NCBI GenBank assembly: GCA_977862235.1
Contig: OZ374565.1
Coordinates: 124,001 to 188,000, forward strand
Reading direction: 5' to 3'
From: Dudresnaya verticillata
Lineage: Eukaryota
DNA length: 64,000 nt
A model generated the notes under the pieces. It saw nothing but the letters and a program-made list of their open reading frames with translations, ran no database searches and was not told where the DNA came from. A program made the translations under genes and the position numbers. Shown piece by piece: positions 1,711-53,587 of the stretch; position 1 is the first letter of the stretch, and each line of letters opens with the position of its first letter.

Positions 1711-1739
1711 TTGATCAATTACGCTCTACCGCCGCCGTT

Positions 1740-2468: not shown

Positions 2469-2558
2469 ATTCTTTTGATAAAATTTGTTGCTTTCAAAAG
2501 AATTGTCTCAACTTAACAAAAGTTTCGAAATATCGTACACGTCCAAACCCGACCTGTA

Positions 2559-4244: not shown

Positions 4245-4315
4245 AACGGAGTACTCGCCAATGTCACCCTGAATTGCCAGAGTCAGAGCAAATTGACACG
4301 AGCTCGAACGCTCCG
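4235..4315 (+). promoter_or_regulatory. Putative -1 ribosomal frameshift signal (G_GAT_TTT slippery heptamer plus downstream stem-loop)
   Basis: Heptamer 4235-4241 directly precedes the gag TAG. The -1 frame is open 4235-4450. Nested pairings CGGAG/CTCCG, CTCG/CGAG, TGTCA/TGACA, CTGA/TCAG start 5 nt downstream. Confidence 0.7.
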
Positions 4316-4425
4316 CCTAATTTACTATCTGGCATGAAAAATCCGATTCTGTTTAGTGCGTTAAAAAAGGGGAAAAGCCAAAAAATAGAAAACAGAAAAA
4401 TCCAAGAAGTAGAAATAGACCCTAC

Positions 4426-7400
4426 ATGCATATTCTCAACACCGGTATAGAAGACATTAAGTTGGACAGTAGCTCAAATGACTTCCACGGGGCTTGCATA
4501 GACACTGGAGCTCAACGCAGTGTAATTGGAAAGCAACAGGCAAAAGCATATTGCAAGAAGGTTGGAGTCCAATTCAAGCATAAAGCTTCTCCGCTAAGGT
4601 ACCGTCTTGGAAAGGGAACATTTTCTGCAATAGGTTCAATCCCAGTTAGAATTTGTACGCCTGATGGAAAAGTTCTGAGGTTGAACGTTGACGTTATTGA
4701 TGTGAAATTCCATTCTTACTTGGTCTAGATTTTCTAGATAGAGAGAAAATATTCGCGGACAACGTTGACAATCAGCTGGTCTGCAAACTAGGATGGCATA
4801 TGCCAATCGTTCGCAAGTTCGGTCATCTTTATGTCGATTGGACGGACTACGCCGTCAACTTTACCAAAGCAGAGCTGAAGAAACTCCATCTACACTTCTA
4901 TCATCCTACTGTACAGAAGCTTTACGCTCTGCTCAAAAGAGCTAAACCTGAAGAGGTTGACCACGACACGAAGAAGCTTCTAAACAAAATTACTACAGCA
5001 TGAAGTGCAACACCCAAACACGGGGATTGCCCCAACCGTGTTCGACGCGGTCTCCCGCGGTTAGGTAGCAGGCGCCACGCGGTGAGGCGGGCGCCTGTGT
5101 GCTGGTAGAGCAGCCGAGACACGGGGTGTGCCCCGGGGATAGTGTAACCGGGGTCGACTGTAAACCCCCGATCCACCTGAAGTGCCGTAGTGCACGTAAA
5201 CGTAGCGACGGCGATACACGCCGGTAGGATGGCGCGGAAGAGGGACTCAGAACAGGGTACGTAGCCCGAGTTGCGTCCGGTGGTGACACCGGAAGCAAAG
5301 TCGGGGGTATCCTCAGGTTCCGAGACCAACTTGGCGCTTTACTGTGAGAGGGGCTCACCCCGTATACTAAGTATCCCCCGCGGGAGGTGCGCGCGCGTGT
5401 CTGGCGCCGTGCGCCTGACACTTGGCATGTGCGCGCACCGCGGGCTCACTAAAATATCGCGCAAAAATATCTAGCGTAGAAATACTACTAGCGCACTGTA
5501 AATCAGTGTAAACTAAGGGTGCGCGTTGCTGGCGTGCACCCGATCGAGGACTCCCTCGGATATGTTCGGCGCGCGTGTCGCGCGTGTAAACGTGGATGAG
5601 TGCGCATACCAGTGCGCGTGTATGTGAGCGGGCGTCCGCGCAAAAACAGGTTCCGGGCACTGCACCACACAGCATGCCAAACTTGTCAAAGATTCACTCC
5701 ACGACAACAGAGTTTCAAGGTTTCATTTCCAAAGGGAATCGTATTTAACCAAGAGCTCGCATTGGATTTAATGTTTCTTGACGGAATGGCAGTACTACAT
5801 GTCGTGGACTTGCAAACGCATTTTAGTGCAGCAACATTTTTGGCTGGTCAATCGATACAGGCTACTTGGTATGCATTCTTGGAATGCTGGGCTACCGTAT
5901 ACACTGGTTTCCCAGACTCTATTAAGACAGACCAAGGAAGCATATTTACTTCACCAAAGTGGAAAGAAATTATGGACGCCTACGGTATTGCGTTTACACT
6001 TACCGCCGTAGAAAGCCATAATTCCTTAGGTGCTGGTGAAAGGTATCACGCACCATTGAGAAGGATTTATCACAAAATCCGACATTCTCAGCCGAATATT
6101 GATGTCATGATGGCTCTTAGATTAGCTGTCAAGGCGATGAATGATACTATGAACCCTGAGGGGCTCGTTCCTTCCCTCCTCGTCTTCGGTGTTCTACCAA
6201 GGTTTCCTGGAGCATCTCAGTCCTTACCTGATCAGCAAGAAAGAATGCAGGCACTCTTGCTTGCTAGACTTGAGATGGAAATTATTTCTAACCAACTCCG
6301 TTTACGGAAGGCATTAGAATCGAGGCTTCCGCAAGCTGCTTCCCATGAGCTGGAAGTTGGACAGGAAGTTCTAGTGTATCGAGAAGATGAGAAACCGATC
6401 AAATGGACTGGCCCGTTCAAGATCAAGAGATTAGAAGGGAAGCAAGTGTTCATAGATCGAGATGGTACTGAGGCTCAACACTCAGTAGCCCAAGTCAAGC
6501 CGTTCCTTCAAGAGGAGGAAGTCGGTGAAAACTTTGTGGACGTACTACACTCAATGGTAAGGCCTTTCGTTTCCTGCAAAGGCAGGGAACAAGAACCAGC
6601 TAGAGTGTATGTCACTGAAGTTCTACATCCAAGAGACCCTAGAGGAGGCTCTCCAGAGTTCTTGGAAGCTAAGAAGAAAGAGATTAAAGGTCTCATTGAG
6701 AAGGGTACTTGGAAATTAGTACTGAGAGAAGACGTCCCCAATAACGCAAACATATTGAATGGTAGATTTGTTTTGGCTATCAAGAATGCCAATACTAACG
6801 AAGAGATTTTCAAAGCAAGATATGTGGTCCAAGGACATAAGGATAAGGAGAAGAACTTCTTGATCCACAATTCTACCAACGTGAGACAGAGTTCTACACG
6901 ACTGATGATGGCAATAGCTTCTATGTATGGCTTCCGCGTCTGGAGTCATGATGTTAAACAAGCTTACTTGCAGAGCTCAGAACAAATTTTGAGAAAGGTC
7001 TATTTGAAGCCCTCAAAGGAGTTCGAGCTAGCACTCAACCAGTTGTTAGAGCTTCTCAAACCATTGTATGGTCTACCAGATTCTGGAGATTACTGGAACC
7101 AGACCATGCTACTGCATCTTACAAAGGACCTGTACATGCAGCGGACTGTCAGTGATGTTTCCTTGTTCTTCAGGTACATCGACGGAAAACTCGCAGGAAT
7201 GACGGGTTCCTATGATGATTCGTTACACTGTGGTAACGAAAAGTTTCTGAAACTTTCCGACAAGTCTTTAGAAAAGTTCGAATCAAGAGAAAGAGAGTTC
7301 GATGATGTTGTGTTCGCAGGAGTGGCCGTCAAGAACTCTCCAAATGGATTTCAGCTTGGACAAGAAGACTACATAAGGAAGCTTTCTATCCTCCCGTTAG

Positions 7401-8139
7401 ATTGTAGTTACTCTGATTTCAGGTCCAGTCGTGCTAAATTAGCATGGGTTACTCACACTAGACCTGACATATGTTTTATGGTGAACAAATTAGCACAACA
7501 GCAGCAAAGTTCGACATCGGACAAATTAAGAAATTGAACAAGGTCGTTAAGAAGATTCAGAAGGATCCGAAGAGATGCCTACAGTATCAAAAGTTGGACT
7601 TCCGCACGTTACATCTCAAGGTGTACGCTGACTCGTCATTTGCTAATAACGAAGATCAGACCTCTCAGCTAGGCTACATCGTCCTACTAGCAGATGATTC
7701 GGGCAAATGCAGCATAACTCACTACTCCAGCCACAAGAGCAGACGCGTCGTTCGGTCTGTACTTGGCGGGGAAGTATATGCCTTCGCTGATGCTTTTGAT
7801 TTCTCTTTCACCCTGAAGCACGACCCTGAGCGCATTCTGAAGAAGAGAATCCCACTCAAGATCTTCACGGATTCTCGTAGCTTGTTTGACGTAATCACGA
7901 AAGCGTCTTCCACTACTGAGAAAAGGCTAATGATAGACATCAGAGCCGTTCGGAATGCTTATGATGCAAAAGAGATATCTGATGTTGGTTTCATTCGTTC
8001 TCAGCATAACCCGGCTGATTCGTTTACCAAAGAAGGAGCAAATGATGCGCTCCATGACATTGTTTCAAAGGGAAAATACGACCATCCTATCGAACAATGG
8101 GTTGTTCGAGACTGGAATACTTCACTAAAAATGTCTTAG
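4426..8139 (+). pseudogene. pol: Copia pol (protease-integrase-RT-RNase H), broken by frameshifts, a solo-LTR insertion and a YVDD->YDD deletion
   Basis: Protease CIDTGAQRS; integrase HLHFYH...CQTC split by the insertion; DLMF, TDQGS and GAGERYH core; RT and RNase H motifs. Frameshifts near ~4430, ~4705 and ~7495. Confidence 0.9.
5001..5669. mobile_element. Solo LTR (669 bp, GC-rich) inserted in the integrase zinc finger
   Basis: TGAAGTGCA...TGCACCACA termini and 5-bp duplication CAGCA (4996-5000, 5670-5674). Removing it restores ...KITTA-CQTCQRF. Confidence 0.88.
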
Positions 8140-8193
8140 TCTGCAAAAGTGACCAAGAAGGATTAAGCGAAAGAGACGGGACTTTGGAAAGAC

Positions 8194-8627
8194 TGAAGCA
8201 GACTGACTGCTGAGGGTGCCAGATTGGCGCTTAGATGCGACACAGTTTTATCTACGTCGCAATAAATCTACTTAGTCTTTATTTACTTTTGCTACAGTAA
8301 AATATTTTCTAGTGGATAGGTCGTACATTTAGAGACTAGAGCTAGTCTTTATGTGAAGATAGAGTTAGTCTTTTATTTAGTAGACTAACGCTGCAAAACT
8401 AGCTCTAAAAGTACGGTTTTACCTGCCGGAGTCTTGGCTAGCAAGCGCTCCGGCAGAGTATAAAGGGCCTCCCTCGCCGGCCAACTCGGCGAGGAAAGGA
8501 CACACATTATCAACTCAAACCACCACCCCAAAGCCACTACTTGACATTTCCATATTTACCGTCAACCGCTGTACACATCGTGTGTATTTTTCCCGTTTTT
8601 GCTTACAGCCGCGCCGGTTCTGCCACA
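8194..8627 (+). repeat. Copia 3' LTR (434 bp)
   Basis: Copy of 1277-1710 with two substitutions noticed by eye; ends TGCCACA, then unrelated flank. Confidence 0.88.
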
Positions 8628-11170: not shown

Positions 11171-11546
11171 GTTTTAGAATGGTTCTGAGAGGGTTCTGAC
11201 CCAGTTGATATTGCCGTTCTCTTGTTAACATACCTTCTCTCTTGGTAGTAGCGTACACTATAAGCTCTTAGTAATCCCCTATAAAGTTCCCCATCCCTCC
11301 TATGTAAACATGCGAATTGCAAGGCTGGGTTTTGGCGATGCAGTTCGAAACTGCCAAACAGGACATGAAAAGCCACGACGGAAAGCATGCTGTGTGTCTG
11401 AGAAGTTCCACTGGACGCTCTCTCTGTTACAATCTCGCTTCTAGGAACTGTTCAAGTTTCTGGAAAGAATCTGGAAGGATTGGTGCATTAGGTTGCCAGC
11501 GTCTGCAGGAGAGCTTTGAGTACATGAGTTGGCAAACGAGTCCGCG

Positions 11547-13622
11547 ATGAGATCGGCAAAACAAGAGATAGCCGCCAAAAGGTTGCCACATATCCAAGGC
11601 ATAAGAGCACTATGCCTCGTCTACGTGTTGCTCTTTCACTTTGAAATCGGGGGTGCGCAATTGGGCTTTCTTGGTGTGGACATGTTCTTCGTCATTTCTG
11701 GATATGTCATGACGAACGCAATTTGCAAGAAGCTGTTTCGGGATGAGTTTAGTATGAAACAATTCATCGTGAGTAGATACTGGAGGTTATGTCCTACACT
11801 CTTCATGACATGTGCTCTTACTCTGCTCTTCTTCTACCAAATCTTAGAGCCCGTTCAGTTTCTGGAAGTTGAATGGGCAGCGCTCTCCTCAGTTTTGGGT
11901 GTACAGAACATACGTGAAATGGTAAAGCAAGAAGATTATTTTGCAACGCCGTCAAAAGCAAAACCTTTGCTGCACGTTTGGTCCCTTTCATTGGAACAAC
12001 AGTTTTATGGGGTTTATTCGGTCGGACTGGTAGTGCTTCACAGATTTGTGCGCAATACGCGATATCCAAGGGAATGCCTTTCTGCTCTCGTGGTATTGAC
12101 ATCTGCGCTTTTCCTGGTCTTTGGAACCCTTCTCATAGACTACTACCCGAGTTGCAACTTTTACTTCTTATTCCATAGGTTTTATGAATTTGGACTAGGG
12201 TGTACTCTGTTCTTACTCCGCGCGCCAAACTTGGAAGCTGAGAATACATTCCTAGTCGCTCGCTTCCAGAGTCCCAAATTCTTGAAGGAGATTTTCGTTT
12301 GTTCTGCATTGCTAGTTCCAACCATACAGGTTTTCAACTTGTTGCCAAAGCATGAGCTTCTGCAGTTGCGTATTTGGAGTTTATTGTCTGTGTGCATTCT
12401 TATCGATTGTCCCGAAAGTCATATTTCTTCTCTTCTGCTTTCCAACAGGGTTGCCGTGGCAATTGGAGAAGCATCGTACACTGTCTATCTTCTTCATCTT
12501 CCAATATGGGTCTGGCTTTCGTCTATTTTCTCTTGTGCTAGATTTCAGCAACTTCGCCTTTCCTTCGTTTTGTTGAGTCTTATTGCATCTTCCTTGTTCA
12601 TGTTCTGGTGTATCGAAAAGCCTTTTCGGTCGAAGAAAGGCCCTCCTTTTGGTGGATTCTCTGTAGCGTGTGTCCTGCTGTTCATTGCGGTCTTCTGGCA
12701 TGCGTCTTCTCAAAACTCCGGTGGAGAGTTCCATTTCGACTCTAAACGAGTCGGTGATTTGGTTTTCGATTGGCGCACCGGACACGACGAATTGTTTCCC
12801 GTACCCGATACGATTACTCGAAAAGACCGTCTATCGCAACTGGTATACGAGAACGGCGAGTTGGTGACACAGAATCCAAACGCTTTTAACACGAACGCCA
12901 TGGTCATCGGCAACTCATTTGGGCTACACACTGCTGACGGTATGCGCATAGCTTCCGGCAAGTGGGGAAAGAAGATAATCTTTGAGACGATGCTAGGGTG
13001 TTCTTTCGATTTACCAGGCAGAGGGAAGAGCGGTGGCAATTGCGAGGCGTCAAATGAATTCATATATAATGCAGTTATGCTAGTACAGCCCAAAGTGTTA
13101 TTCATAGGTTCAAGATGGGAAGGGTATGTGAAGTCTGACAAACTGGATGCAAAGTCAGAAATGCCGCTACGAATGAAAGAGCATTTTGAGACTCTATCAC
13201 TCAACTTTTCGAGGGTAGTGTCAAAAGTGGTTTTTATTGGGACGACACCGTCGTATGCAGCTTTCCGAAAACACAAGCATTGCCGGCATTTGCAAGGAAC
13301 AATATTCAAGGATTTGGTTTCGAATGTTGAAGCTAAGAAGCGAACGTACGCCTCGCAGCCGCGTTTCTGGAAGACGAACGTCTTAATGAGGAGATACTTT
13401 GAGTCTACTGAAGCACCAAAAAATGCTGAGTTTCTGGATATATTTCAGATTGCTTGTCAGAACACAAAGAACGTTTGCAACTTTGATGTAGCGAGAGATG
13501 TTTCTGTTCCCAGTGAGGTGCAGGGTGAGAAAGACAGACTTGCACTCTGGGATGATGGGGTACACCTTTCGTTATGGGGTTCTTGGGCAGTTGGTATGCA
13601 TTTGCATCGGGTCTTACAATGA
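11547..13622 (+). CDS. Acyltransferase-3 (OafA/OatA/YrhL-like) membrane O-acyltransferase fused to an SGNH domain
   Basis: IQGIRAL..V..FH, GVDMFFVISGY, LLHVWSLSLEQQFY and IGEASYTVYLLHLP motifs, multiple TM segments; C-terminal GNS...DGVH SGNH motifs. First ATG at 11547; intronless. Confidence 0.92.
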   Translation: MRSAKQEIAAKRLPHIQGIRALCLVYVLLFHFEIGGAQLGFLGVDMFFVISGYVMTNAICKKLFRDEFSMKQFIVSRYWRLCPTLFMTCALTLLFFYQILEPVQFLEVEWAALSSVLGVQNIREMVKQEDYFATPSKAKPLLHVWSLSLEQQFYGVYSVGLVVLHRFVRNTRYPRECLSALVVLTSALFLVFGTLLIDYYPSCNFYFLFHRFYEFGLGCTLFLLRAPNLEAENTFLVARFQSPKFLKEIFVCSALLVPTIQVFNLLPKHELLQLRIWSLLSVCILIDCPESHISSLLLSNRVAVAIGEASYTVYLLHLPIWVWLSSIFSCARFQQLRLSFVLLSLIASSLFMFWCIEKPFRSKKGPPFGGFSVACVLLFIAVFWHASSQNSGGEFHFDSKRVGDLVFDWRTGHDELFPVPDTITRKDRLSQLVYENGELVTQNPNAFNTNAMVIGNSFGLHTADGMRIASGKWGKKIIFETMLGCSFDLPGRGKSGGNCEASNEFIYNAVMLVQPKVLFIGSRWEGYVKSDKLDAKSEMPLRMKEHFETLSLNFSRVVSKVVFIGTTPSYAAFRKHKHCRHLQGTIFKDLVSNVEAKKRTYASQPRFWKTNVLMRRYFESTEAPKNAEFLDIFQIACQNTKNVCNFDVARDVSVPSEVQGEKDRLALWDDGVHLSLWGSWAVGMHLHRVLQ

Positions 13623-23626: not shown

Positions 23627-24514
23627 TCAACAACATTGGAAACTGACCCATACCGGGAGAGACTCGCACTGCTCGCAGACGAAGATGTAAACGATGCCCA
23701 TGTCGCCCAGACACAGATTGGAACCCTTAATAGAGTCGAGAACAAGCTTGCCGTTTCCCAACCGCCGGACATCACTGGGGGCCCAACGGTAACCGGAAAC
23801 AACATCGCCGATATCAGAGCTCGAAATGGAGAGCATGAGGGTCATATTGCTGCCACAGGCGCACTTGTTAGGCTCAAAATTCTGAATCACACTGACATAG
23901 CCGCCGACCTTGGTCCCCGGCGAACTCGAAAACATTGACTCGTACGCATATTCCTGGCAGTCTCCCGGGACCTTGAGCTCCTCAAAGTCATCGATGGCCT
24001 TCTCTTGGACCCAGTCGTTAACCGCATCGAATAGGTCACCGACCTCAGAATCGGTCTCCTGAACGCGCTCCGGGAAGAGCGCGCACTCAGCAGGGACCTG
24101 CGAGCGGTTGTAGTACTCGCCGTGGAATGGTGGTGGGCGCACGGAGCCGATCTCGCTTGCAGTGCGCCAGAAGGTGGCCACAATCGGCCCGTAGACGGTT
24201 TCTTCGTGGTCCTCCGGACACCATAGCATATTGAAGAGGTCGGTGCGCGGCGGGAACGGGAGTTCGGGGACGTCTGCCTTGCGCAGCTGGACTACCGGAA
24301 CGTACGGGCAGTTGTGTTCGGAGCAGTTCGGCCACTCGGCGTCCGACGGCCAGGCAGGCCGGCCACCTAGCTTGGAGGCGAATGGATCTGGGACTGGGCG
24401 GCAGCGCGGGTGGAGCAGGACAGCGGTCTTTTTGGGAAGGTTGAAGTGGGCGGCGACATCCATTTTGGGGATGTAGGTCTTGGGTGGGGTAATCGACGGG
24501 TCCGAGGTCGACAT
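23627..24514 (-). CDS. YwqG/DUF1963-like (PDCD2_C-related) protein, paralog A
   Basis: SKLGGRPAWP, CSEH..VQL, TKVGGY..IQ, CACG..M.L and LGDMG.VYIFVC motifs. Colinear with 42073-42966. Confidence 0.75.
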   Translation of the reverse strand: MSTSDPSITPPKTYIPKMDVAAHFNLPKKTAVLLHPRCRPVPDPFASKLGGRPAWPSDAEWPNCSEHNCPYVPVVQLRKADVPELPFPPRTDLFNMLWCPEDHEETVYGPIVATFWRTASEIGSVRPPPFHGEYYNRSQVPAECALFPERVQETDSEVGDLFDAVNDWVQEKAIDDFEELKVPGDCQEYAYESMFSSSPGTKVGGYVSVIQNFEPNKCACGSNMTLMLSISSSDIGDVVSGYRWAPSDVRRLGNGKLVLDSIKGSNLCLGDMGIVYIFVCEQCESLPVWVSFQCC

Positions 24515-25053
24515 GACGTGATTTCGTGGTGGAGAGGGTGTGTCGGGCGGTGGGAATGCTGCTCGGGGAGCATGCGATGGTCCCAGCGGGAGGGGTTACG
24601 TGCTATAAGGATCCATAGCGTCTTGCGCAAGACTGTGAATGCATCTGCATGCGAGGCCTCAGGGGGTCAGCCAGGGAGGCGGGCGCAGCGCGTAACTCGC
24701 GGACCTCGAACGGAGCGATGCGGGGCTTGTCGTTACCATGGGAACAACGATGGCGGTGAAGGTAGCGAGCGTTGCCCACCGTGCATGGCATGCTGGCCAT
24801 CGTCAGCAGAGCGGAAGACTGCTCTCCGGCCGCCTGCGCGCAGTCGCGAAAATATGTCCGATATGGCGCAGTGAGGTGACGTGGCCGCGCCGCGAAAATG
24901 ACGTGGCCGCAGCCCCAAAAACGAACGAGAGAGCGGATCACCGCGCCACGCCGCGTCACTCCCGCTTTCCGCGTCGACTCCGCCCCGATCGACTCCTCGC
25001 CGACTCCGCACCGACTCCGCACCGCCCGCTCCCGGAGCGCACGTCTACGCGCC

Positions 25054-40400: not shown

Positions 40401-42072
40401 ATAAACCCTTTGATCATCAAAAAGCCCAGATATATCTTATTCGCTTTCCACAGGCTGTAGTTGCAGCCCAACAGAAATATTGACTAGTCCATATCTAATC
40501 CCTTCAAGGAAATCTGGGCATATTGCCTTCGCGTTGTGTTCTGCACGCTGTTCTGTAGTCTTGGAAGATGCATTGTAGACCTACTGGGCCAAACAGGAGA
40601 ATAATAATGTCCTCATGCATGAAACACTCATGCGTGTTGCTACGGTAGGTCATTCTGTTGTTGAGTGCCCTCCGTGTGATATATGCCTCAGATTGAAGTC
40701 CGTGTTTCTGGTAAACGCTACGAGTCGTTTATTTACCTTGCGAACGCCTACTGCATGCACACTTCGGGCTCTCTTCTGAGCTCTGAAAAACAGAACTGTC
40801 TATCCGAGTAACATAATGAAGTTGTCCTGATCCTTCGACAACATCATAGTCTGAAGGTTTTGACCATGCAAAAGAGTCGCCTAAAGCATGGAACGAGACC
40901 CTCTACTTTATTCGTGCCATCCTCTGAATCTTGGGAAAGGGGAGAATGGTTCCAAGAGTGCATGCTGCCTTTAGAGTCAAGAGAGGGAGAGGGGAGAGAG
41001 AGATTGGGAGAATGGGCAACATTATAGAGGGGCAACGAAGTGGCAAACTTTGTAGAGCTGATGGGGATTGCTGTTACCCGAGTTTCTGTGCGGGCGTTTG
41101 GCAGATCGCGATCTCGCGGGTCCAGATTACATTTTTCTCCGGAGAGTAAAAGTCCGAGTGTATGAGTTGATAACTGCCATGCAGGCACGTACGTGCACAC
41201 ACACCCACACACGTATGGGACTGGCTTTGATTTGTACGTTAATTTTTTCGTTGACTGGGGCTATGAAAAGCTTAGACAGTCGCATCGTTATGTGATTGCC
41301 TTATCAAAGTGTGGCAGTTTGGACGCTGTCAGCAGAAGGGCTTACAGACGCGCACTCCTTTTCGCGGGACAGACTGTCCCTTAATCAAGACAGCTGTCCT
41401 TTCATCGTCATACACGTGTGTACACGTGGCCTTACAGCTGTATACGTGGCTCGCACGTGGCATTATAATGACGCCAGTTGGACGCCTCGTATTGGCTGAT
41501 TTATGACGCGCGGCGAACGCGGCGTGCACCAAATGCCCTCGCGTTGTACAGATGTGTAGACTCAACCGCATCGGAGTTTCCGTCAACGGCAACAACTGCT
41601 GACCAGGTCGGCCTGTGCCCGTGCGTAGCATGGAGGCCCGTGCCCGTCATCTCCTGCACTCCAGCGTGCAACTCCGGCAGCGGCCGCATCGCCGGAACTG
41701 CACAACTTGCTTTGCGCAAATGAACATGCCAGGTCGCTGACGCCGGCAACGCACCTACAGACCGATCTCGCCTGGTGCAAGGGCTTGTTGGTTGCTAACT
41801 TTATCCGCGCTGAGCTTTCAAGGTCTCGGCGGCGCTACACTCAACAAATCTACTTCAAGCATCGCGCGTTGTTGACACTACTGCGGCGAAGAAACTATCT
41901 TCCGCGCCCGAAACTCACCGCAGCCAACACGCACACCTTCGCTCTCCGCGCTCCAAGCAAAGCCCGACACCCTTGCTCATCACGACCACTGCTGTCAGTT
42001 GCTTACCAAGACCACCACAGCTGCATATCTCACCACTACCACCACGCCCAGGTTACCACTGCCACCCACAAG

Positions 42073-42966
42073 ATGCCGCCATTCGAGCCGCCGCTCTTCC
42101 CACCGCGTACCTACATGCCACAGATCGACCCCGCCACGCAGTTCAACCTGCCCAAAAAGACTGCCGTGCTGCTACACCCGCGCCGTCGCGAGGTTCCCGA
42201 CCCGTTCGCGTCCAAGTTTGGCGGCCGTCCTGCCTGGCCGCGCGACGAGCCGTGGCCGTATTGCACGCAATGCGAGTGTCCGTTCGTCGCTATTGTGCAG
42301 CTCACCCGTGCCGACATCCCGGAGCTGCCCTTCCTGGAAGGTAAGGACCTGTTCCAACTGCTGTGGTGTCCCGGCGATCACGGCGAGGACATCTGCGGCC
42401 CGCTCCCCACCACGCGGTGGCGCGCCGCTCGGGAGATTGGTCCTGTTACTGCGCCGCCGTTCCATGGCGAGTATTACAACCGCGGACATGTACCCCTAGA
42501 ATGTGCGATCTTCCCGGAGCGAATCGAGGAGACTAATGCGTTTGCCGACGATGAAGAGCGTGCCGAGGTCATCAATGCGTGGGTGGCACAAAATGCTTCA
42601 GAGGATTTCGAAGTGCTGCACGTGCCCGAGGACTACCGAGATGATGCATACGAAACCTTGTTCTCCGTAGCACCCAGTACGAAGGTCGGTGGGTACGTCT
42701 CCTTTGTGCAAGATCTGGAACCGGAGACTTGCAGCTGCGGGCGCGAGATGACTCTGATGCTCTCGCTCTCGAGCTCAGATTTTGGTGATGGTACCAGTTG
42801 GTATCGATGGGCGCCGAGTGACTACCCGCGCCAAGCTGATGGTAGCGTCCTCGCTCGAAACAACGCAGGTACTGGCTTCTGCCTTGGGGACATGGGAATG
42901 GTGTACGTTTTCATCTGCAAGCACTGCAAGTCACTCCCGATTTGGACCATCCTTCAGTGCGGTTGA
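42073..42966 (+). CDS. YwqG/DUF1963-like protein, paralog B
   Basis: MPPFEPPLFPPRTYMPQID...FNLPKKTAVLLHPR, SKFGGRPAWP, TKVGGY and LGDMGMVYVFICKHC, colinear with 23627-24514. Confidence 0.78.
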   Translation: MPPFEPPLFPPRTYMPQIDPATQFNLPKKTAVLLHPRRREVPDPFASKFGGRPAWPRDEPWPYCTQCECPFVAIVQLTRADIPELPFLEGKDLFQLLWCPGDHGEDICGPLPTTRWRAAREIGPVTAPPFHGEYYNRGHVPLECAIFPERIEETNAFADDEERAEVINAWVAQNASEDFEVLHVPEDYRDDAYETLFSVAPSTKVGGYVSFVQDLEPETCSCGREMTLMLSLSSSDFGDGTSWYRWAPSDYPRQADGSVLARNNAGTGFCLGDMGMVYVFICKHCKSLPIWTILQCG

Positions 42967-43717: not shown

Positions 43718-43758
<41 letters not shown>

Positions 43759-43841
43759 CATACCGCCGCGCCCCGCACATAACACCGCGAGTGTCGCGCC
43801 GTCGCTCCGCACAACGCATCCTCCCTACCCTCCGCCCCCCA

Positions 43842-44900
43842 ATGCAGCCCCACCAGAACAACCCAAACGGCTTCTACCCGCCCACCTCGTCGCACTACTA
43901 CTCGTCAGACGCTAGTGCCGTGTCGTCCAAGGACGCCCCCTCCGCACCACCTCCGGATACCACCAAAGCCACCTTTCCCGTGCCGAGCCCCATGCATCCG
44001 CAGATGCAACAGCCTATGCAGCAGCCTATGCAACAGCCTATGCAGCAGCCTATGCAACAGCCTATGCAGCAGCCTATGCAGCAGCCTATGCAGCAGCCTA
44101 TGCAACAGCCTATGCAACAGCCCATGCCCATGCAGCAGCCCATGCCCATGCAACAGCCCATGCCCATGCAACAGCCCATGCCCATGCAACAGCCCATGCC
44201 CATGCAACAGCCCATGCCCATGCAACAGCCCATGCAACAGTCTATGCATCAACCCATGCAGCAGCCGATGATGGCGCAACAGCAACTACCCACCATGCAA
44301 CAGCAGTACCCGGGAATGATGCAGCAGCCAGGTATGACGCAACCTGCCATGGGCTACATGACGCAGCCGGTGGCACAGCCGCAGATGAACATGATGCAGC
44401 AGCCGAACGCTTCCTTCACCTCCATGTCTGCCGGCTCCGGCATGCAGTCCGGCCACATCGACGCTATCAAGGCGCATTACCCTGCCGTCGGCTCTTTCAA
44501 GGATATGACCAGCAACATTGCGGGGCTGCACGAGGAGACGATTTTCATGGTTGAGGACGCCATCAGGCGTGTCGTCAATCTCAAGACAAAGATAAACGAA
44601 TTGCAGGCCAAGCGCTCAAGCTACTGGGCCAGACAGGCCGCCAATGGTGGCGTCGCCGTTGCTAGTGCCGTATTTACGTTTGGTACGTCGCTCCTGGTGC
44701 AGGGACCCGGCGCCGTGCATCAGAAGAACAAGTTGGACGCTTTGAAGAGAGAGATTCGGGCGATGCTCGGTCAGCTCAACCAGCTGCGTGATAGCTTTGG
44801 CCACGATTCCAGGTTTAAGGGTGCAGACAATAGTGTGCGCATTGTAGATAGCGTCTTCAAACATGGCATTTCCAGGACCGAGTTGAAGGGTGAATATTGA
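43842..44900 (+). CDS. Gln/Pro/Met-rich low-complexity protein with conserved C-terminal coiled-coil/hydrophobic domain, copy A
   Basis: ATG 43842 (MQPHQNN), (QQPM)n and (QQPMPM)n repeats. C-terminal ~160 aa are nearly identical to 52236-52712. Confidence 0.8.
   Translation: MQPHQNNPNGFYPPTSSHYYSSDASAVSSKDAPSAPPPDTTKATFPVPSPMHPQMQQPMQQPMQQPMQQPMQQPMQQPMQQPMQQPMQQPMQQPMPMQQPMPMQQPMPMQQPMPMQQPMPMQQPMPMQQPMQQSMHQPMQQPMMAQQQLPTMQQQYPGMMQQPGMTQPAMGYMTQPVAQPQMNMMQQPNASFTSMSAGSGMQSGHIDAIKAHYPAVGSFKDMTSNIAGLHEETIFMVEDAIRRVVNLKTKINELQAKRSSYWARQAANGGVAVASAVFTFGTSLLVQGPGAVHQKNKLDALKREIRAMLGQLNQLRDSFGHDSRFKGADNSVRIVDSVFKHGISRTELKGEY
44003..44265 (+). repeat. 12-bp and 18-bp coding repeats (QQPM / QQPMPM)
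   Basis: Arrays of ATGCA(A/G)CAGCCT and ATGCAACAGCCCATGCCC. Confidence 0.9.
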
Positions 44901-46470
44901 CCTCCTCTATTGATGCTTCTTCTTTACGCTGTGTTCACGCTGCACCTATGTGTAGCTCACGCTGTCCCCTTCTTACTTGGCGCCTGGCTTCTTTGCTCTG
45001 TTCAATAAAAAAAACCCGCTGTATGAGGCGCTTGTGCGTGAGCAATGTTGACGAGGGTTTTTGCGAGCATGTCCAAGTTTGGGCGCAATGCTGTGCATCT
45101 TTCCAGGCCGGCCGAAGCCGAATACACTGCCCGTAGCCAGAAACATTTGCAATGAGCCATAGCACACTTGCCCCGCTGTAGTCATGCGAGCCGGTAGCGT
45201 ACTTTTTGCAAGTCAAGGATGGGCCTTCCGATTCTCTAAGTGCTATCACGCCGCAGTATAATGAAGTTATTGGCCGGAGAGATTCTCGCTCATTGCAAAT
45301 ACCGCCAGGCCTGCATGTAGAGGAGAGCACGTTACGTTGCTGTCACGAGTAAAGCAGCGTCTAGACCTTCTTTCACACGTTTGCGACAAGTAAGGTATTA
45401 TTTGCGAGCGGGCTGGCAACCATAGTGGGACCCTCTTTCCCTCTTTCCCTATTGATCGTGAAGGTTTAAGATTTACTGTTTTGTTTAAAGTGGTCCTATG
45501 CGGGCCGGTGACAGGGGCCCGTATCCGAACATTGCGAGATAAGGCCAGCGGGAATGGGCATGGTGACGGGCACTCGTGACACGAGGCTCGCTCGTGGCCT
45601 CTATGTCGCTGAGGACAGCAGGGCAGTCGTGTAGTAGTACTGTAGGTCAGGACCCGGACATCTGAGCCCTCGGATCTTTGTTCATCTTGTGAGTCTCGAG
45701 GTTAGCAAAACTTAGACGTCGCCCTCGCCCTTGCACTAACCTGTTACTGCGAGCCCTCTACGGTCTACCACTTATCGCGGTGTGCAGATTTCGTGCTGGC
45801 TTATTGGCGAGAGCAAATACATCCGCTTGAGCGGAGGATACCAACTTCTAGACAAACTAAAACAAATAAACATTGATCAAAAGCAACAACATAACAAAGA
45901 TAGAGTGACTATAGAAACGCCACAGAGAAATAAACATGCCTCTTCGGGCTCCTGCCAACCGCAGCCCCGCCGTTGATAACTACCACCTTCCTGGCGCGGC
46001 TGCCGCTTGCGCAACGGGATGGTACTTACAGGTTCTGGGTAGCAGACGCTCGAACGGCTACTCTCGGCCAAAGTGATACAGGCTGTAAGTGCTGCCTCAG
46101 ACCCTCTCTCACTGCTCGCTATTCCCCATTTTCACTCTTCACAGGTATACACTCCTTGGCTAAAGTGATGTTTCCCCCAGGTATACATGTAGTTTACCCA
46201 AGTGTGATGGCTGGAGGGGACTCCGAGCCAGGTGACTTGCGGTAACCTACAGGGTGAAGGCAAAAGCTTCGGCTGCGATGCCGGGAGTTTAGTGAGAGTG
46301 ATATCCGAGACGGTATAAGTACTACAGAACCGTGGAGGGAGAGCGACGGCGGCGAGTCCATGACACATGGCCACGTTGCCACGGGGCGGACGCCGTATCG
46401 GAGTCCTCAAAGAGGTGCAACGCCATTCCGGTGAAATAGCCAAGCGCACAGCTGGCTACACTCCCCTCTT

Positions 46471-49400
46471 TCAAAGTGCAAGAAGGCTTCGTGCTTTCTC
46501 AACTAATCCGTTCGGAGTATTCTTGCGCTGGAGAAGGCGGAGCAGCATTGCGGGAACATCCTCGTAGACGCGCTCCAGTGGCTCTAGGGAATCTTCCGAG
46601 TGCGGAAGCCCTTTCCAGCGGACAAAAACCTTCATTCCGTTCGGAGTATCAACCAGACGCATTAAGCGCGCGACTGGCATTCCCATTTCGGAGGACAGGA
46701 CGTGCGACATGATGACGTCCGTGTCCAGTGAGGCGTCATGGTAGAACTTTAGCCGGCAAGCGTGCACGTCCTCAAGAACACCGTTGCGGAGATCTTCGAC
46801 TTGAAAAACCCAGTCGGAGATTGCGTTGATAATCCGACGCGGTCCGCGCCAGCGAAGGGCGAGCTTTTCACCCTTGAAGAAGTCCTCTCGTGCGACGAGG
46901 ACGAAATCACCTTCGGTGAATTTTGGCAGCTCCTCGCGGGAGACTGCGGCACGCTTTCGTTGTCGTGCAATCCGTACGGTGTTTTCAATAACCGGATGGA
47001 GTTCTGCAATTCGGTTCTTGAGCTCGGCGACGTTGATAGCACGCTCGAGCGATACTTTGTCCACCGTAACGGGAGTAGTCGTTTCTGTTCTGAGAAACGT
47101 AGAGATTGGGAGCGTGGGCGCCATGCTCGTAAACGCCGTGATGGGCGCAACTTCTTTCCGTGACGGTGAAGGCACGTTGTTGAGCGCACTCTGAACCAAC
47201 GGGAGAATGTCCGGCCATTCTTCAAACCGCATTTGGAGTTCAGAAACCACCGAACGGAATACGCGTAGGAGCTCCTTACCAAGTCGTTCGACTGCCCCAT
47301 TGCTCCACGGAGAGTAAGGTAGCGTGAAATGGTGGGGAACCTTGAGCCCTTTTGACACCGATCGGAGTACCTCATTCTTGAAATGAGTTGGTCCATCGGA
47401 CATCCATCCGGACGGAACACCAAAAGCAGCAGACCAGTCAATGAGAGAAATTGCTGCTGTTTCCGCTGCGGTGTCGGCGGTGGTGAAGAACCATGCATAC
47501 GCGGAATGATCATCCCGCAGCATCCGGATGTATTTGGCACCGTCACGGCTTGGCCCGACTTCAATATAGTCGAACTGCACTAACCGATTCGGAGCGGTAC
47601 CAAATACGGAGGGTCCGAACAGGCGGGGTATCTTCCCCCCTCCGACTGTCGAAAGACAGTGGATGCAAGCCCGAACGAAGGATCTGACGTCGGCATGAAG
47701 CGTGGGCCAGTAGAACTGCCCATGCCCACGCAACACCTTGGCGTTGGATTTGCGGCCACGGTGGCCGCTCGGTCCGATGTGCGCGATGATGCACGCGCGG
47801 AGTTGTAAGTCCGTAGCGGAGTCAGGAATCCAAATAGCTCCGTTACGGTGTCGCCAGAGTCCGTCCGTTAGGGAGAGGTGTGCCGGCCGCTCTTCATGAC
47901 AGGCAGCCTGCGCGTCGGCGAAGAGCTGGGACGACGGCCATTCGAAATCCGATGCGGAAGAGGAAGGTAACTCCGGAATGTGGACGAGGCGGTGGATTGT
48001 GCGCGGGGCAGACCACCGTCCGAGGAGTTCGGCCCACACGTTATCCACACCCTTGATGTGAAAACACATGTAGCAGTACATACTGAGACGTACCGCCCAG
48101 CGCAATACCTTACGGAGTGTAGTAGCCGAAAGGTCGGGGACAACCGAAAGCGGATCGAAGAGGAAGATGAGGTTGTTTTGGTCGGTGTAGAGATCAAATC
48201 NNNNNNNNNNNNNNNNNNNNNNNNNNNNNNNNNNNNNNNNNNNNNNNNNNNNNNNNNNNNNNNNNNNNNNNNNNNNNNNNNNNNNNNNNNNNNNNNNNNN
48301 NNNNNNNNNNNNNNNNNNNNNNNNNNNNNNNNNNNNNNNNNNNNNNNNNNNNNNNNNNNNNNNNNNNNNNNNNNNNNNNNNNNNNNNNNNNNNNNNNNNN
48401 CGTCCGGAGTAGCAGCGAGCCAGTGCATCCTTTCGAGGGAGGCGAGCACCGCGTAGGCTTCCTTCTCGAGAGTTGACCAACCAAATTGGGTGCGGTTGAA
48501 CCGACCGGAAAGAAACGCGAACGGCTCGTGACGTTGTTCAGCGTGAGATTTCGCAAGGTCCTCGCGAGGAACTTGGGTCATGATCCCTGACCACACCGTA
48601 TCGGAAGCATCTGTGTAAACACACAACCGTTTGGAGTCATCGCGATGTGCGAGGGTGACTTGATGTGCCAAAGCGGTTTTGCATGCCCCGAAAGCGGTTT
48701 CTTCTGTAGCACTCCAACCCGTGAGTGACAGTTGGGTGCGTGCGACGGCGCGTTTCATGCGCTTTCCGACTCGGTTGTAGATGCGCTCCATGGCGTCGTG
48801 GAGAGGTTGTACCAACTCTGCGAATTGCGGAATACCGTTGCGGAGCCACTGTAACGCGCAGAGGAACTGCTGTAGGTGGGCACCGGTTGTCGGAGATTCC
48901 ATTCGGAGTAGGCCATTAAGGCGGGCTGGATCGTAGCGAATACCGTCTGCGGAGATGAGACGGCCACACCACCGTACGGATTTGCTGAAAAGCATGCACT
49001 TCGCAGGGTGCAGCTTGAGGTTGAGTTGCGCGCAGAGCTCTAGAAAAATCCGAATGGCTTCGAGCAGTCCTGCAATCGTCTTGTGATGTAGCAGGATGTC
49101 GTCAAGCCAATGAAGAACTGTCTTGCACAACCGTTTCGGAAGTACCTCAGCCAGGGACGACTGGAGGTGTGTCACAGCATTCGTCGTGCCGTGTAAAACC
49201 CGTGTAGGTGTGTAGATTCCATCCGGAGTAATGAACGACTGCAGCTCCTGGGAGCCCTTGTCCAGTTGGAGTTGCCAGTACCCGTGCGACAGGTCGAAAG
49301 ACGCAAAATACCGGGAATCGGAAAGCTTCGTTAGCTCGTGCTCCAGATTCGGCATCGGGTACTGGTGCTTGACGGTGAATTTGTTCACCGGGCGGAGGTC

Positions 49401-51467
49401 GACCGTGAAACGGAATCGGGCAGGTCCCGGTTTTGGAACCAGTAGGGGAGCGCACGCCCACGGCGATGTGGGGTTCGCGTACGCTAGACCGTTACGGAGT
49501 AGTTGGTCGACGAATCCTTCTAGGAACTCGCGTTGTTCACGCGAGTAATTCCGTAGACGGACTTTGACGGGTCGTGCATCGGGGGTGAGCTCGATCTTGA
49601 GCGGCTTGATTTCGGCTGGGCGTCCAGCAGAAAATCCGGTTCGGAATATATTCACGTGGGTGTCCAGGAGATCAGCTAACTCCTGTTGGTGTTCACCTAG
49701 AAGACCATTCTCCGTTGCGGATTTCTTCATCCCTTCAACTCCGTTGCGGATTGCGTGCTCTTGATCGAGGTCCACTGGGTCGAGTAGGGACTGGTCTGGG
49801 AAGGGGTCTTCTTCATTCCGGGCGGTGTAGTAGTTCACGCGCGGCCTATTATGGGCCGGTTCGCGCTTACCGTTTTCGGAGGTGTCATCCATTTCGCGGA
49901 TGCGGTTGAGGCGTGCGATCATCATGCGACTAATCGCTCCGCCACGGTGTACAGCAGTCGGGTTCCCGACGCTGCTGCAGTCAGCCCCGTCTAACTCCGA
50001 TCGGTTTTGTTCCAGGAGGGTACGGGTGTCCACCTGTAAGTGCTGAAGAACTGGAAGACCGATAAGGAGGTCTTCGCAGGCCAAGTCATCGTCCGCAATA
50101 AGGAACGAGACGTTAGCCAGCGCCAGCTCACCACTTGACAGATGTAAAACCGTTCGGGGAGACGTCCACTTTCGGGAGAATGAAAACTTCTGCGCCTCCG
50201 TGTCGGACTTCAGAGCCACGCTTAACCGTATCGGTGTAATGGCAGTAATCTTGCCTATACCCCGGATGACGGCTCTCTCGGCAAGCTTGGACGACACGAT
50301 GCTGTCGTCGCTGCCGTCATCACAACGGCCTGTCCCGTCGAGAGACGTTTGGCCATCGGAAACGGTTACGGAGCAAGACGGATGAGCATGAGAACTATAA
50401 TCCGCTTCGGTGTGATTCTCCTTCTTGGGAGAAATCCTTCCGGTTAATCCGCCTCCTTTGCTCTGGCTCCTTTCCGTATCGGTTGTCTTGGAGGTATTGT
50501 CTCCTTGTTTGCTCCGTGTGGAGCGTGCGGGTCCGCCGGACGCCCGTTGTGCGGCCAAATCGGAAAACATCTTGTCCTTCTCCTCCTTTGTGGATGCGGG
50601 ACAGTCCTTAATAAGGCGTTTCTTCCCTTTGGACTTGCAGGGACCAAACGGACAGTCGGGCAGCGGGCGTTGAGAGCCGCTATTGCTACTCTTGGTCGCA
50701 CGACCTGTACCGGACGGAGTCTTGTCAGTAGAATTTCCCGATCGGTGTTGTTTGTTATTTCCGTCACGGTGTTCAGAACGCTTCTTGTTCTTTGGACCAC
50801 TGTCCACCAACTGGAAGGCGTCGGACAGCTTGACGGCGTGTCGCATGAACCCCTTGAAATCTTTCTTGAGTTCATGGTGGGCGAAATCCAGATCGGATTT
50901 GAGGCGCTCTTTGAGAGACACCGGTCGGACTGCAGACATAACGTGGCTGACAGCGACCTTCTGGTTGCTCTTAAGCAACCAGGAAATTCCGTTACGGCGT
51001 AATAGGGAGTGGTAGGACACAAAAAGAGACTCCATTCGGGATCGGGCGTTTTTGTCGCTCATATCCATACGACGTTCTTGTCCCACTAGGGTATCCAGAG
51101 TCTCGAGAGTGACAGTCTCCTCGGACTCCTTAGCCTTCTCAGCGAGGTAGTCCCGAAGCACCGTATCGGAAAGTTCCTCGTAGGAGTCTACGCCCTCAAT
51201 GAGGTCGAGGGCGATTGCCGACTCGAGGTATTCGGGGTCAACGCAAAACTTGAGGTTGACCGGACGGACTGCTTCCATCGTGGTGTACCCGGTAGATGTG
51301 AGCTGCCTAGCGCGGGCTGTTACTTCCTGGCTGTACTGATCGTACAGGCGAAGGAAAACGCGGATCGACTCCGCATCCGTTCGGTTTAGACGCGGGTGAT
51401 CAACCGATGTGTCCACAAAAGACGCGCCTTGCGTCGTGACAGGCGGCGTAGAGGATGCCTGTGACAT
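46471..51467 (-). CDS. gag-pol: Gypsy Gag-Pol polyprotein (1598 aa if the 200-N gap is removed)
   Basis: RT (FTVDLR, DLSHGYWQ, WLDD), RNase H (YTDASD, EKE), integrase (H..H...CIHC, FDY, SDG, GAVER), chromodomain (VRWKG...DSLEP). The gap flanks join in frame as ATPD-G-FDLYTD. Confidence 0.9.
48201..48400. other. Assembly gap (200 N)
   Basis: Run of N. Confidence 1.
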
Positions 51468-51874
51468 GATGGTGTCAACTCCGTTTCGGTTTGGAGCCCT
51501 GTGAGGCGATCGGTGGGTGATCGTAGCTCACTTTCGTGAACCTTGTAGGTGACCAGGTTTGATCCGTTACGGATCGTGCACTCCTTAGTCGTAGTGATCA
51601 CTGTGATGGCTGGAGGGGACTCCGAGCCAGGTGACTTGCGGTAACCTACAGGGTGAAGGCAAAAGCTTCGGCTGCGATGCCGGGAGTTTAGTGAGAGTGA
51701 TATCCGAGACGGTATAAGTACTACAGAACCGTGGAGGGAGAGCGACGGCGGCGAGTCCATGACACATGGCCACGTTGCCACGGGGCGGACGCCGTATCGG
51801 AGTCCTCAAAGAGGTGCAACGCCGTTCCGGTGAAATAGCCAAGCGCACAGCTGGCTACACCAAGGAGCCAATTT

Positions 51875-51925
51875 CCCGTCCCGTCCCGTCCCGTCCCGTC
51901 CCGTCCCGTCCCGTCCCGTCCCGTC
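51875..51925. repeat. (CCCGT)n pentanucleotide microsatellite (~10 units)
   Basis: Seen directly. Confidence 0.95.
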
Positions 51926-52235
51926 AATTGGAAGGCCCATCCTTTACATGCAGAAGGTACGCTACGGACTCGCATGGCTACAGCGGGGGACAATTGTGCT
52001 ATGGCTCATTGCAATTGTTTCTGACTACGAGCAGTGCAGTCGGCTTCGGCCGGCCTGGAAAGATGCACAGCATTGCGCCCAAACTTGGACATGCTCGCAA
52101 AAGCTCTGGTAAACATTGCTCACGCACAAGCGCCTCACGCAGCAGGCCTTTATTGAACAGAGCAAAGACGGCAGCAGCCAAGCAAGAAGGGTACAGCGTG
52201 AACATAGCGTAAAGAAGAAACCTCAATAGAGGAGG

Positions 52236-53423
52236 TCAATAATCACCCTTCAACTCGGTCCTGGAAATGCCATGTTTGAAGACGCTATTTACAACGCGCA
52301 CACTATTGTCTGCATCCTTAAACCTGGGATCCTGGTCGAAACATTCACGCAGCTGGTTGAGCTGACCGAGCATCGCCAGAATCTCTCTCTTCAAAGCGTC
52401 CAATTTGTTCTTTTGATGCACGGCGCCGGGTCCCTGCACTAGGAGCGACGCACCAAACGTAAATACGGCACTAGCAACGGCGACGCCACCATTGGCGGCC
52501 TGTCTGATCCAGTAGCTTGAGCGCTTGGCCTGCAATTCGTTTATCTTTGTCTTGAGCTTGACGACACGCCTGATGGCGTCCTCAACCATGAAAATCTGCT
52601 CCTCGTGCAGCCCCTCAATATTGCTGGTCATATCCTTGAAAAAGCCGACGGCAGGGTAATGCGCCTTGATAGCGTTGATGTGGCCGGACTGCATGCCGGA
52701 GCCGGCAGACATGGAGGTGAAGGAAGCGTTCGGCTGCTACATCATGCTCATCTGCGGCTGTGCCCCCGGCTGCGTCATGTAGCCCATGGCAGGTTGCATC
52801 ATTCCTGGCTGCTGCATCATGGCCGGTTGCATCATACCTGGCTGCTGCATCGTGGCGGGTTGCTGCTGCACCATTCCCGGGTACTGCTGTTGCATGGTGG
52901 GTGGTTGCTGTTGTGACATCATCGGCTGCTGCTGCTGGAGCATCATTCCGGGGGCAGAGCCCATTCCACTGTGCGAAGAGCCGGCGGAGCCCGACGGGGC
53001 TGATGTTGGGGTAGCTGGGATTTGCATGGGGTACTGCATGGGTTGATGCATAGACTGTTGCATGGGCTGTTGCATAGGCATGGGCTGTTGCATAGGCATG
53101 GGCTGTTGCATCGGTTGTTGCATCGGTTGTTGCATCGGTTGTTGCATAGGCATGGGCTGTTGCATGGGCTGTTGCATCGGTTGTTGCATCGGCTGTTGCA
53201 TAGGCTGTTTCATTGGCTGTTGCATGGACTGTTGAATAGGCTGCTGCATAGGCTGTTGCATCTGCGGATGCATGGCGTTCTGCACGGGAAAGGTGGGTTT
53301 GGTTGTACCCGGGCGTGGTACGGAGGGGGTGTCCATGGACGACGCGGCACTAGCGTCTGGGGAGTGGTAGTGTGACGAGGTGGGCGGGTAGGGGCCGTGA
53401 GGGTTGTTCTGGTGGGGCTCCAT
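52236..53423 (-). pseudogene. Inverted copy B of the Gln/Pro/Met-rich gene with a premature stop
   Basis: Colinear with 43842-44900. ATG ATG CAG CAG in copy A reads ATG ATG TAG CAG at 52737-52739; the same frame continues to 52236. Confidence 0.82.
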
Positions 53424-53587
53424 TGCGGGGTGGAGGGGGGGATTGCGCCGAACGACCGTACGACACTCGGGGTGTTATACGCGCGGCACGGCGGCAGGCC
53501 GGCGCGGGAGTTGAAAAGCGAAGGGGCACGCTGAGGAAGGGAATGCTGACGAAAGGGAAGGTGGTGCAGAACAGGATGAATGGGTAC

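Follow-up and report, generated by a model that had tools for sequence, protein, structure and literature searches.

The stretch of DNA analysed here, called the window, comprises 64,000 nucleotides (64 kb) of Dudresnaya verticillata contig OZ374565.1 and contains a 5.66-kb Ty3/Gypsy LTR retrotransposon on the minus strand (46203-51859). The features that define a Gypsy element are present, namely LTRs, TSD, polypurine tract (PPT) and the domain order PR-RT-RH-IN (Table 1). The only mismatch between the two LTRs is at 46425/51824 (1/258), which corresponds to a divergence with a 95% interval of 0.01-2.1%. The gag-pol ORF starts at 51467, 134 nt past the 5' LTR. RNase H is split by an assembly gap (48201-48400, 200 N), with the ORF open on either side; homologs cross this gap with about one residue between both sides, which suggests that almost no coding sequence is missing there. 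The C-terminus matched the chromodomain family PF00385 with E=0.0014 and 18.9 bits, which is under the curated cut-off of 25.1. The match in L010, a related element described below, is likewise under the curated cut-off (E=0.00024), and precomputed PF00385 annotations are present in several homologs. One close homolog is from Gracilaria changii, and Phytophthora proteins are 42% identical, which makes a red-algal host likely.

The ORF of the window element deviates at 9-11 of ~285 positions at which 20 relatives do not vary, the third highest number among 22 sequences (the relatives have a median of 4 and a range of 0-21). The deviating residues include one position of the Gag zinc knuckle and two positions of RNase H. 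Because the ORF departs from otherwise invariant residues, the window copy, although young, may not be fully autonomous, and other copies may have assisted its mobilisation. Even with such assistance, functional cis signals of its own would have been needed. The earlier note on this DNA had argued from the youth of the insertion that its unusual primer site is likely a working one; the LTRs are indeed nearly identical, but in view of the deviating residues this argument is weaker than the comparison with relatives.

Inverted gene copies with PMQQ-type repeats (43749-45233 and 51926-53508; 80% identical) lie on either side of the Gypsy insertion, and a (CCCGT)n microsatellite (51870-51925) adjoins its target site. 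Elsewhere in the window, 23630-24595 (-) and 41629-42963 (+) are inverted paralogues, the second of which matches DUF1963, and 11520-13619 (+) encodes a protein with Acyltransferase-3 and SGNH domains in a eukaryotic context, an architecture that we take to be OafA/OatA-like.

Table 1. Coordinates in the window of the Gypsy element, its junction features and the comparison site of the Copia element
Feature	Position	Strand	Description
5' LTR	51602-51859	-	258 nt, TG...CA; 257/258 positions identical to 3' LTR
3' LTR	46203-46460	-	258 nt, TG...CA; direct repeat
TSD CCAAG, left copy	46198-46202	+	
TSD CCAAG, right copy	51860-51864	+	
Polypurine tract (PPT) GAAAGAGGGGAG	46461-46472	-	12 nt, directly before 3' LTR
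gag-pol region	46474-51467	-	Gag, protease, RT, RNase H, integrase, chromodomain-like C terminus
10-bp palindrome A/GTGATCAC/T = AGTGATCACT	51593-51602	-	LTR terminal A plus first 9 nt of PBS position
14-nt junction ACA/GTGATCACTAC	51591-51604	-	Invariant in three Gypsy families, including AC after the palindrome
GTGCAC	51576-51581	-	Predicted monomer partner masking the palindrome, 11 nt downstream
Second inverted repeat GATCCGT-A-ACGGATC	51561-51575	-	Predicted 6-bp hairpin; family-specific
U5 arm of predicted U5-leader stem enclosing the palindrome	51640-51652	-	
Leader arm of predicted U5-leader stem	51541-51554	-	
Comparison palindrome A/TTGATCAA/T	1710-1719	+	LTR end of the GalEa-like Copia in the window

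Reading past the 5' LTR of the Gypsy element gives CA/GTGATCACTACGACTAAGG. Canonical tRNA-primed elements have a TGG 0-5 nt from the LTR that is complementary to the 3' end of a tRNA. The window element does not belong to this type, and no TGG is present within the first 25 nt after its 5' LTR. No tRNA gene was found within the 64-kb window, and Rfam gave 0 matches at E<=1 across 51300-52000. In the place of a PBS is a 10-bp palindrome that spans the last A of the LTR and the next 9 nt. Palindromes and inverted repeats of this size are not rare per se, since perfect 10-bp palindromes number 81 in the window and inverted repeats with two 7-bp arms, 0-1 nt apart, number 19; the second inverted repeat of the leader belongs to the latter class. 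The palindromic form CA/N8/T occurs in eight cases in the 64 kb with both strands counted, and two of the eight fall exactly on the LTR ends of the two LTR elements of the window. By an arithmetic estimate, the chance of completing a palindrome at a given LTR end is ~(1/4)^5. It is the position of the palindrome, rather than its mere presence, that exceeds chance. These results agree with the earlier note, which had reported a palindrome in place of a PBS, LTRs that differ at about one of 258 positions with intact TSD and PPT, and the absence of a TGG-type PBS.

A metagenome scan gave five loci related to the window element, with a readable leader in two (L002 and L003); L001 and L004 begin inside gag and L005 has no gag start or site. 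The gag identity of the two leader-bearing families to the window element is 44% and 53%. Both have ACA/GTGATCACTAC upstream of gag, with a palindrome identical to that of the window element, and ACAGTGATCACTAC is common to all three close Gypsy families. Pairwise blastn of the LTR/leader regions of the three families gave a single segment with E<0.01, the 14-17-nt junction, which is also the only conserved block in their alignment. The LTR ends of L002 and L003, with 110 and 121 nt of LTR available, were placed by the junction match. Among 110 loci, the 14-nt junction was found in two, L002 and L003. The second inverted repeat, to which the earlier note had also pointed, does exist, but a role for it in the mechanism is not supported: besides being one of 19 such repeats in the window, it was found in 0/110 loci at <=2 mismatches, few of these loci being relatives with a leader.

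A more distant member of the clade, L010, is a Gypsy element on a circular contig within a bacterial genome bin, and is 42% identical in RT/RNase H. In a quick tree L010, the window element, L002 and the Phytophthora proteins form one clade of 41 of the 48 rows (SH-aLRT 100). Its layout, PPT/TGTTC...GAACA/AAGCGCTT/T, has 5-bp inverted termini and again contains an A/N8/T palindrome; the LTR end was set at one of the two GAACA in the region. Three of the four inner pairs differ from the window core, with both sides changed, and shuffles of the 675-nt region of L010 produced such a palindrome in 2.6% (0.026). The palindrome is present in all four readable leaders of the Gypsy clade, with two independent cores. 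This comparison upholds the view of the earlier note that the site is not a product of decay: it is identical in both related families (2/2), and the more distant clade member has a palindrome of other letters. A canonical PBS in sister copies had been named there as counter-evidence; the relatives, which are other families and not sister copies, show no canonical PBS.

Genome searches added only L010 as a leader of the clade, with L058 consisting of pol only. Neither viral contigs, scanned with gag, gag-pol and Copia queries, nor genome contigs, scanned with gag, yielded a relative. Gypsy matches on stray eukaryotic contigs were found in 2/257, 1/401, 2/401 and 0/301 genomes, and Copia matches in 1/257. 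In the same contig sets, L034 and L101, which fall outside these clades, have ordinary TGG sites, and no palindrome was found in 5/8 scanned non-coding regions of other elements (L007, L034, L099, L100 and L101). The pattern CANTGATCANT had 10 matches in G001, all in bacterial-looking sequence, and was discarded. Bacterial bins that hold eukaryotic LTR-retrotransposon contigs are G001 (L006, L007, L010, L034-L047, L098-L100), G002, G003 and G216; in G001 there were 24 matches of Gypsy type and 21 to the Copia query. These contigs are evidently contamination, and one such retrotransposon protein carries the name of a Chlamydiota bacterium.

The second LTR element of the window is a GalEa-like Copia (1-8627, +), a head-to-tail array that shares an LTR and has a frameshifted pol. 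The repeat 1-1710 / 6921-8627 (99.7%) fixes its LTR end, and in both copies the LTR starts with TT, not TG. The motifs TRPDI, YVDD and ADxxTK are present as described for GalEa elements. At its LTR end is the comparison palindrome of Table 1. Similar sites were found in two Copia relatives with LTR ends placed by inference: in L098, A/TTCGCGAA/T goes together with inverted termini of 4 bp (shuffle rate 0.036), and L006 has A/TTCCGGAA/T (shuffle rate 0.076) and a second such palindrome further downstream. The scanned LTR-leader regions of L007, L099 and L100 contained no CA/N8/T palindrome; the leader of the Copia relative L099 was readable and free of the palindrome, and L099 and L100 are circular contigs. 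The Copia relatives L008 and L009 came without a leader. As read by eye, an extra short frame with a C2H2-like zinc-finger end lies between LTR and gag in the window Copia (~1950-2470, +) and in L006 (287-874), and apparently also in the 5' part of the unrelated Gypsy L034; it is possibly an accessory gene common to the superfamilies.

Taken over Gypsy and Copia, seven junctions are available (six distinct), in which all 30 cells of the five pairs are paired, a count that is partly circular and overstated because three junctions were located via the palindrome. Four of the five pairs changed on both sides, and 0/500 shuffles matched the score. The register is the same in 7/7 junctions, and slid registers pair just 17-46%. 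In L010, L006, L098 and the window Copia, 2-6 of the 8 core positions differ, and every core is palindromic. LTR ends were seen as two copies for the window Gypsy and the window Copia, and were deduced for L002, L003, L006, L010 and L098; independent support comes from the two ends seen in duplicate, from the shuffle rates and from the inverted termini. Judged by these junctions, it is the symmetry that is conserved and not the sequence. A sequence that changes freely yet stays self-complementary would best be read as one that pairs with a second copy of itself.

Folds were computed as predictions for naked RNA. LTR and leader together fold with no unusual stability (z -1.5). For the 10-mer, a self-duplex of -13.6 kcal/mol is predicted, and in dimer folds of the Gypsy leaders the palindrome pairs between strands in three of four (L002, L003 and L010). 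The free dimer fold of the window element leaves the palindrome unused, because the monomer pairs the site with GTGCAC in the U5-leader junction (palindrome positions 1-3 and 6-8 are paired at a probability of ~0.95-0.98). This GTGCAC partner was not seen in the junction sequences of L002 or L003. With an opening-energy estimate, the net energy of dimer formation via the palindrome is predicted to be favourable in all seven elements (-2.8 to -9.0 kcal/mol). In the window element opening costs 5.4 kcal/mol per strand and the net energy of -2.8 is the smallest of the seven; the remaining six have -5.3 to -9.0 kcal/mol. The two-fold symmetry continues in the flanks past a small internal loop (positions -2:+10 and -3:+11 are unpaired in 7/7 elements), with further pairs in most elements. 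Flank shuffles gave p values of 0.37 for the window element, whose flank symmetry is thus no better than shuffles, and then 0.14, 0.024, 0.059, 0.23 and 0.012, with a Fisher p of 0.002 over the six elements and 0.038 over the three Gypsy elements tested. When the symmetry was extended with a bulge, just 3/12 outer cells were paired.

The LTR boundary is the start point of minus-strand synthesis, and the 3' end of the primer pairs with about the first bases after CA. With roughly even confidence, we propose that the palindrome pairs two genomic RNAs, one of which, cut there, primes the other without a tRNA. The two packaged RNAs would pair across the palindrome, as the folding suggests, and one of them would be cut at the 3' edge of the palindrome by analogy with Tf1, in which the primer-releasing cut is made by RNase H. 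LTR elements are described to package two RNAs (PMC4974528), and for Tf1 RNA a cut site that frees the primer has been described (PMC4600332). The upstream piece of the cut RNA would then prime minus-strand DNA on the partner RNA. The new DNA would be complementary to the primer's own R-U5 RNA and would fold back on it; fold-back and RNase H could trim the primer to a short stub, where plus-strand copying would stop. The model places the cut after position 8 or 9 of the site, with 3' fragments that would begin at or near UAC. On strong-stop DNA the primer RNA would in this model be the element-derived GUGAUCAC. The site would then have two sources, being copied directly from the template and in mirror image from the primer. 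With both contributing, its symmetry would be kept while the letters drift, which would also account for the invariant A:T outer pair. The observations behind this proposal are the position and conservation of the site, its paired letter changes, and the lack of TGG and of a Tf1-type complement. The AC that follows the palindrome is invariant in three families, and a palindrome does not demand it; it could stem from protein binding or from pairing with some outside RNA. Besides this AC, several observations speak against the proposal: the predicted monomer fold of the window copy masks the palindrome, its net gain is the smallest and its flank symmetry is at shuffle level, the Gypsy leaders that could be read number four with two independent cores, and the leader of L099 has no such site.

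Of the other readings, it seems unlikely, though deserving of weight, that the palindrome is a dimerisation or packaging signal (DIS- or Ty1 PAL-like) that abuts the LTR, while another primer acts at or beside it. Palindromes mediate genome dimers in Ty1 (PMC4974528), and the GalEa authors draw the comparison with DIS (PMC5445492). All of the covariation observed here fits pairing without priming, and a plain dimerisation signal would equally look like a palindrome. However, as far as the available text of the GalEa paper goes, the palindrome in those systems comes on top of a PBS (PMC5445492), while here no other primer site is visible and the register is identical in 7/7 junctions. Moreover, the LTR end is flush with the palindrome and the 3' end of the primer must therefore pair within ~9 nt, which argues against dimerisation only. 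Quite improbable in our view is that a fragment of a host RNA, such as the half tRNA-Ile used by Bianca Copia elements, serves as primer through imperfect pairing, and that the palindrome is partly incidental. The invariant 11-mer in three families, with its AC outside the palindrome, does resemble the complement of a host RNA. A eukaryotic half tRNA-Ile would pair at ~9/11 positions of the site, with mismatches opposite tRNA positions 37 and 32. It would presumably be within two mismatches of the window core, but not of the other cores. A possible match to the D-arm of tRNA-Val, with a 3-nt bulge, was dropped, as it would leave the other cores unexplained. In a rule-based test for perfect pairing, with rules taken from general tRNA structure, no register that ends the primer at tRNA positions 38-43 combined complete pairing of GTGATCACTAC with U33, Y32, R37 and an intact anticodon stem. 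Half-tRNA-Ile priming as such is known, and in the available text of the plant survey half-tRNA priming is confined to Copia lineages (PMC6317226). A host RNA is also made less probable by the further cores (L010, L006, L098, window Copia), which remain palindromic despite differences at 2-6/8 positions: no one RNA of the host would be able to pair with four or five different cores.

We consider improbable, too, and a little more so, a cis hairpin as proposed for the fungal CHS, in which the 9-mer would pair with CHSeq2 or GTGCAC and a cut in the loop region would give the primer. The monomer fold does pair the site with GTGCAC 11 nt downstream inside the U5-leader junction, and a stretch pairable at 7/9 positions lies 35 nt downstream of the site. 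Against this hairpin, no stretch within 45 nt comes closer to the expected CHSeq2 than 6/9, 5/9 and 5/9 in the three Gypsy families, L002 and L003 do not show the GTGCAC partner, a downstream arm does not require the 9-mer to be palindromic, and CHSeq2 is absent from 5/44 fungal families in the published table (PMC5445492). Self-priming of the Tf1 type, from the 5' end of the transcript, is very improbable and already largely refuted. A U5-leader stem is predicted, and ATCAC, the complement of site positions 1-5, occurs 95 nt before the LTR end of the window element and 36 nt before that of L002, with ATCAA likewise in the window Copia. A Tf1-type complement, which the earlier note had named as evidence that would speak against its reading, was looked for in the window LTR and not found: over the full 258 nt the longest match is 5 nt (6 with G-U), against a criterion of 10 nt in the available text of the survey (PMC6317226). 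L010 gets to 8 solely with G-U pairs and an offset, and in 3/6 elements the first five bases have no full match of 5 nt at all. That the palindrome arose by chance, or is a decayed tRNA site, can practically be dismissed. The window has 81 perfect 10-bp palindromes and some ORF decay, but the conservation of the junction refutes this explanation, as the same 14 nt recur in three families whose leaders otherwise do not align; palindromes are moreover found at both LTR-element ends of the window.

Priming between two paired genomic RNAs would come in addition to the types of LTR primer recognised so far, which comprise, in the available text of the survey, whole tRNAs, half tRNAs and the 5' end of the transcript itself (PMC6317226). 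The closest known system is that of the fungal GalEa Copia elements of the Pezizomycotina, in which a palindromic CHSeq1 after the 5' LTR was proposed to replace the PBS, by a mechanism unexplained since 2017 (PMC5445492). As described there, the fungal CHS shares with the window element the lack of a tRNA PBS and a 9-nt site right after the 5' LTR that is palindromic together with the last A of the LTR. The TGATCA core is common to the CHS core CTGATCAGT and the window core GTGATCACT, with the outer pair swapped. In contrast to the described fungal elements, the window element is a Gypsy, probably red-algal, and not a GalEa-clade Copia of Pezizomycotina, it lacks CHSeq2 (complementary save for an A/A mismatch), and its type of core varies in paired fashion among relatives. 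The fungal system is further characterised by an extended CHS of 33-62 nt that elements of one host species have in common (PMC5445492). In the table of that paper a second fungal form, CTAATTAGT, is restricted to elements with a GC content of 20-43% (PMC5445492), and because of this restriction it is probably a RIP product of CTGATCAGT and not natural covariation.

The proposed priming resembles that of Tf1, Sushi, Tcn1 and TAR in being independent of tRNA, in using the element's own RNA as a primer that needs a cut, as we propose here, and in a predicted U5-leader pairing (PMC4600332, PMC6317226). The Tf1-type primer, however, is the 5' end of the transcript with >=10 nt of complementarity, compared to 5-6 nt for the best match in the window LTR (PMC6317226), and the Tf1 site, as described, is not self-complementary, whereas the window site is (PMC5445492). 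Short palindromes that join RNAs are likewise known from the retroviral DIS, the Ty1 PAL and the palindromic 5' end of tRNA-iMet in Ty1 and Ty3 (PMC4974528, PMC5371799), but in the accounts available these sit beside a tRNA PBS and not instead of one. The half-tRNA elements Osser, Bryco and Bianca also have no TGG, but their site is described as the complement of a tRNA anticodon arm and not as a palindrome (PMC6317226). The Skipper chromoviruses of Dictyostelium, which are chromodomain Gypsy elements, have no TGG either and their priming is unexplained, but according to the text available their site is a polypyrimidine run, not a palindrome (PMC5006619). Other papers concern, in the parts available, tRNA sites, bivalve TRIM inverted repeats or the Skipper pyrimidine run (PMC3350952, PMC3587641, PMC6934838, PMC5006619, PMC5371799). 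In the open literature, to the exclusion of subscription journals, Repbase reports and older oomycete papers, we found no description of a palindromic PBS in Gypsy elements, and an oomycete Gypsy PBS had no literature match.

The site is real and conserved, and it is probably functional as a primer site that does not depend on tRNA. A palindrome at the LTR-flush position is already published for fungal Copia, and the case in the window adds a Gypsy clade, probably of red algae, as well as Gypsy and Copia elements with different cores in one genome. The same register in the Gypsy clade, together with paired changes and no CHSeq2, points to the palindrome and not to a downstream hairpin as the working part. 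Tentatively, and at slightly less than even confidence, we propose a fourth mode of LTR priming. A red-algal Gypsy clade with relatives among oomycete elements would use it, and GalEa-like Copia elements in the same hosts would do so independently. This mode would also explain the fungal CHS, and the symmetry of its site would be self-repairing. If this is true, dimerisation of the genome would be tied directly to the initiation of reverse transcription, and many elements annotated as having 'no PBS' would be explained.
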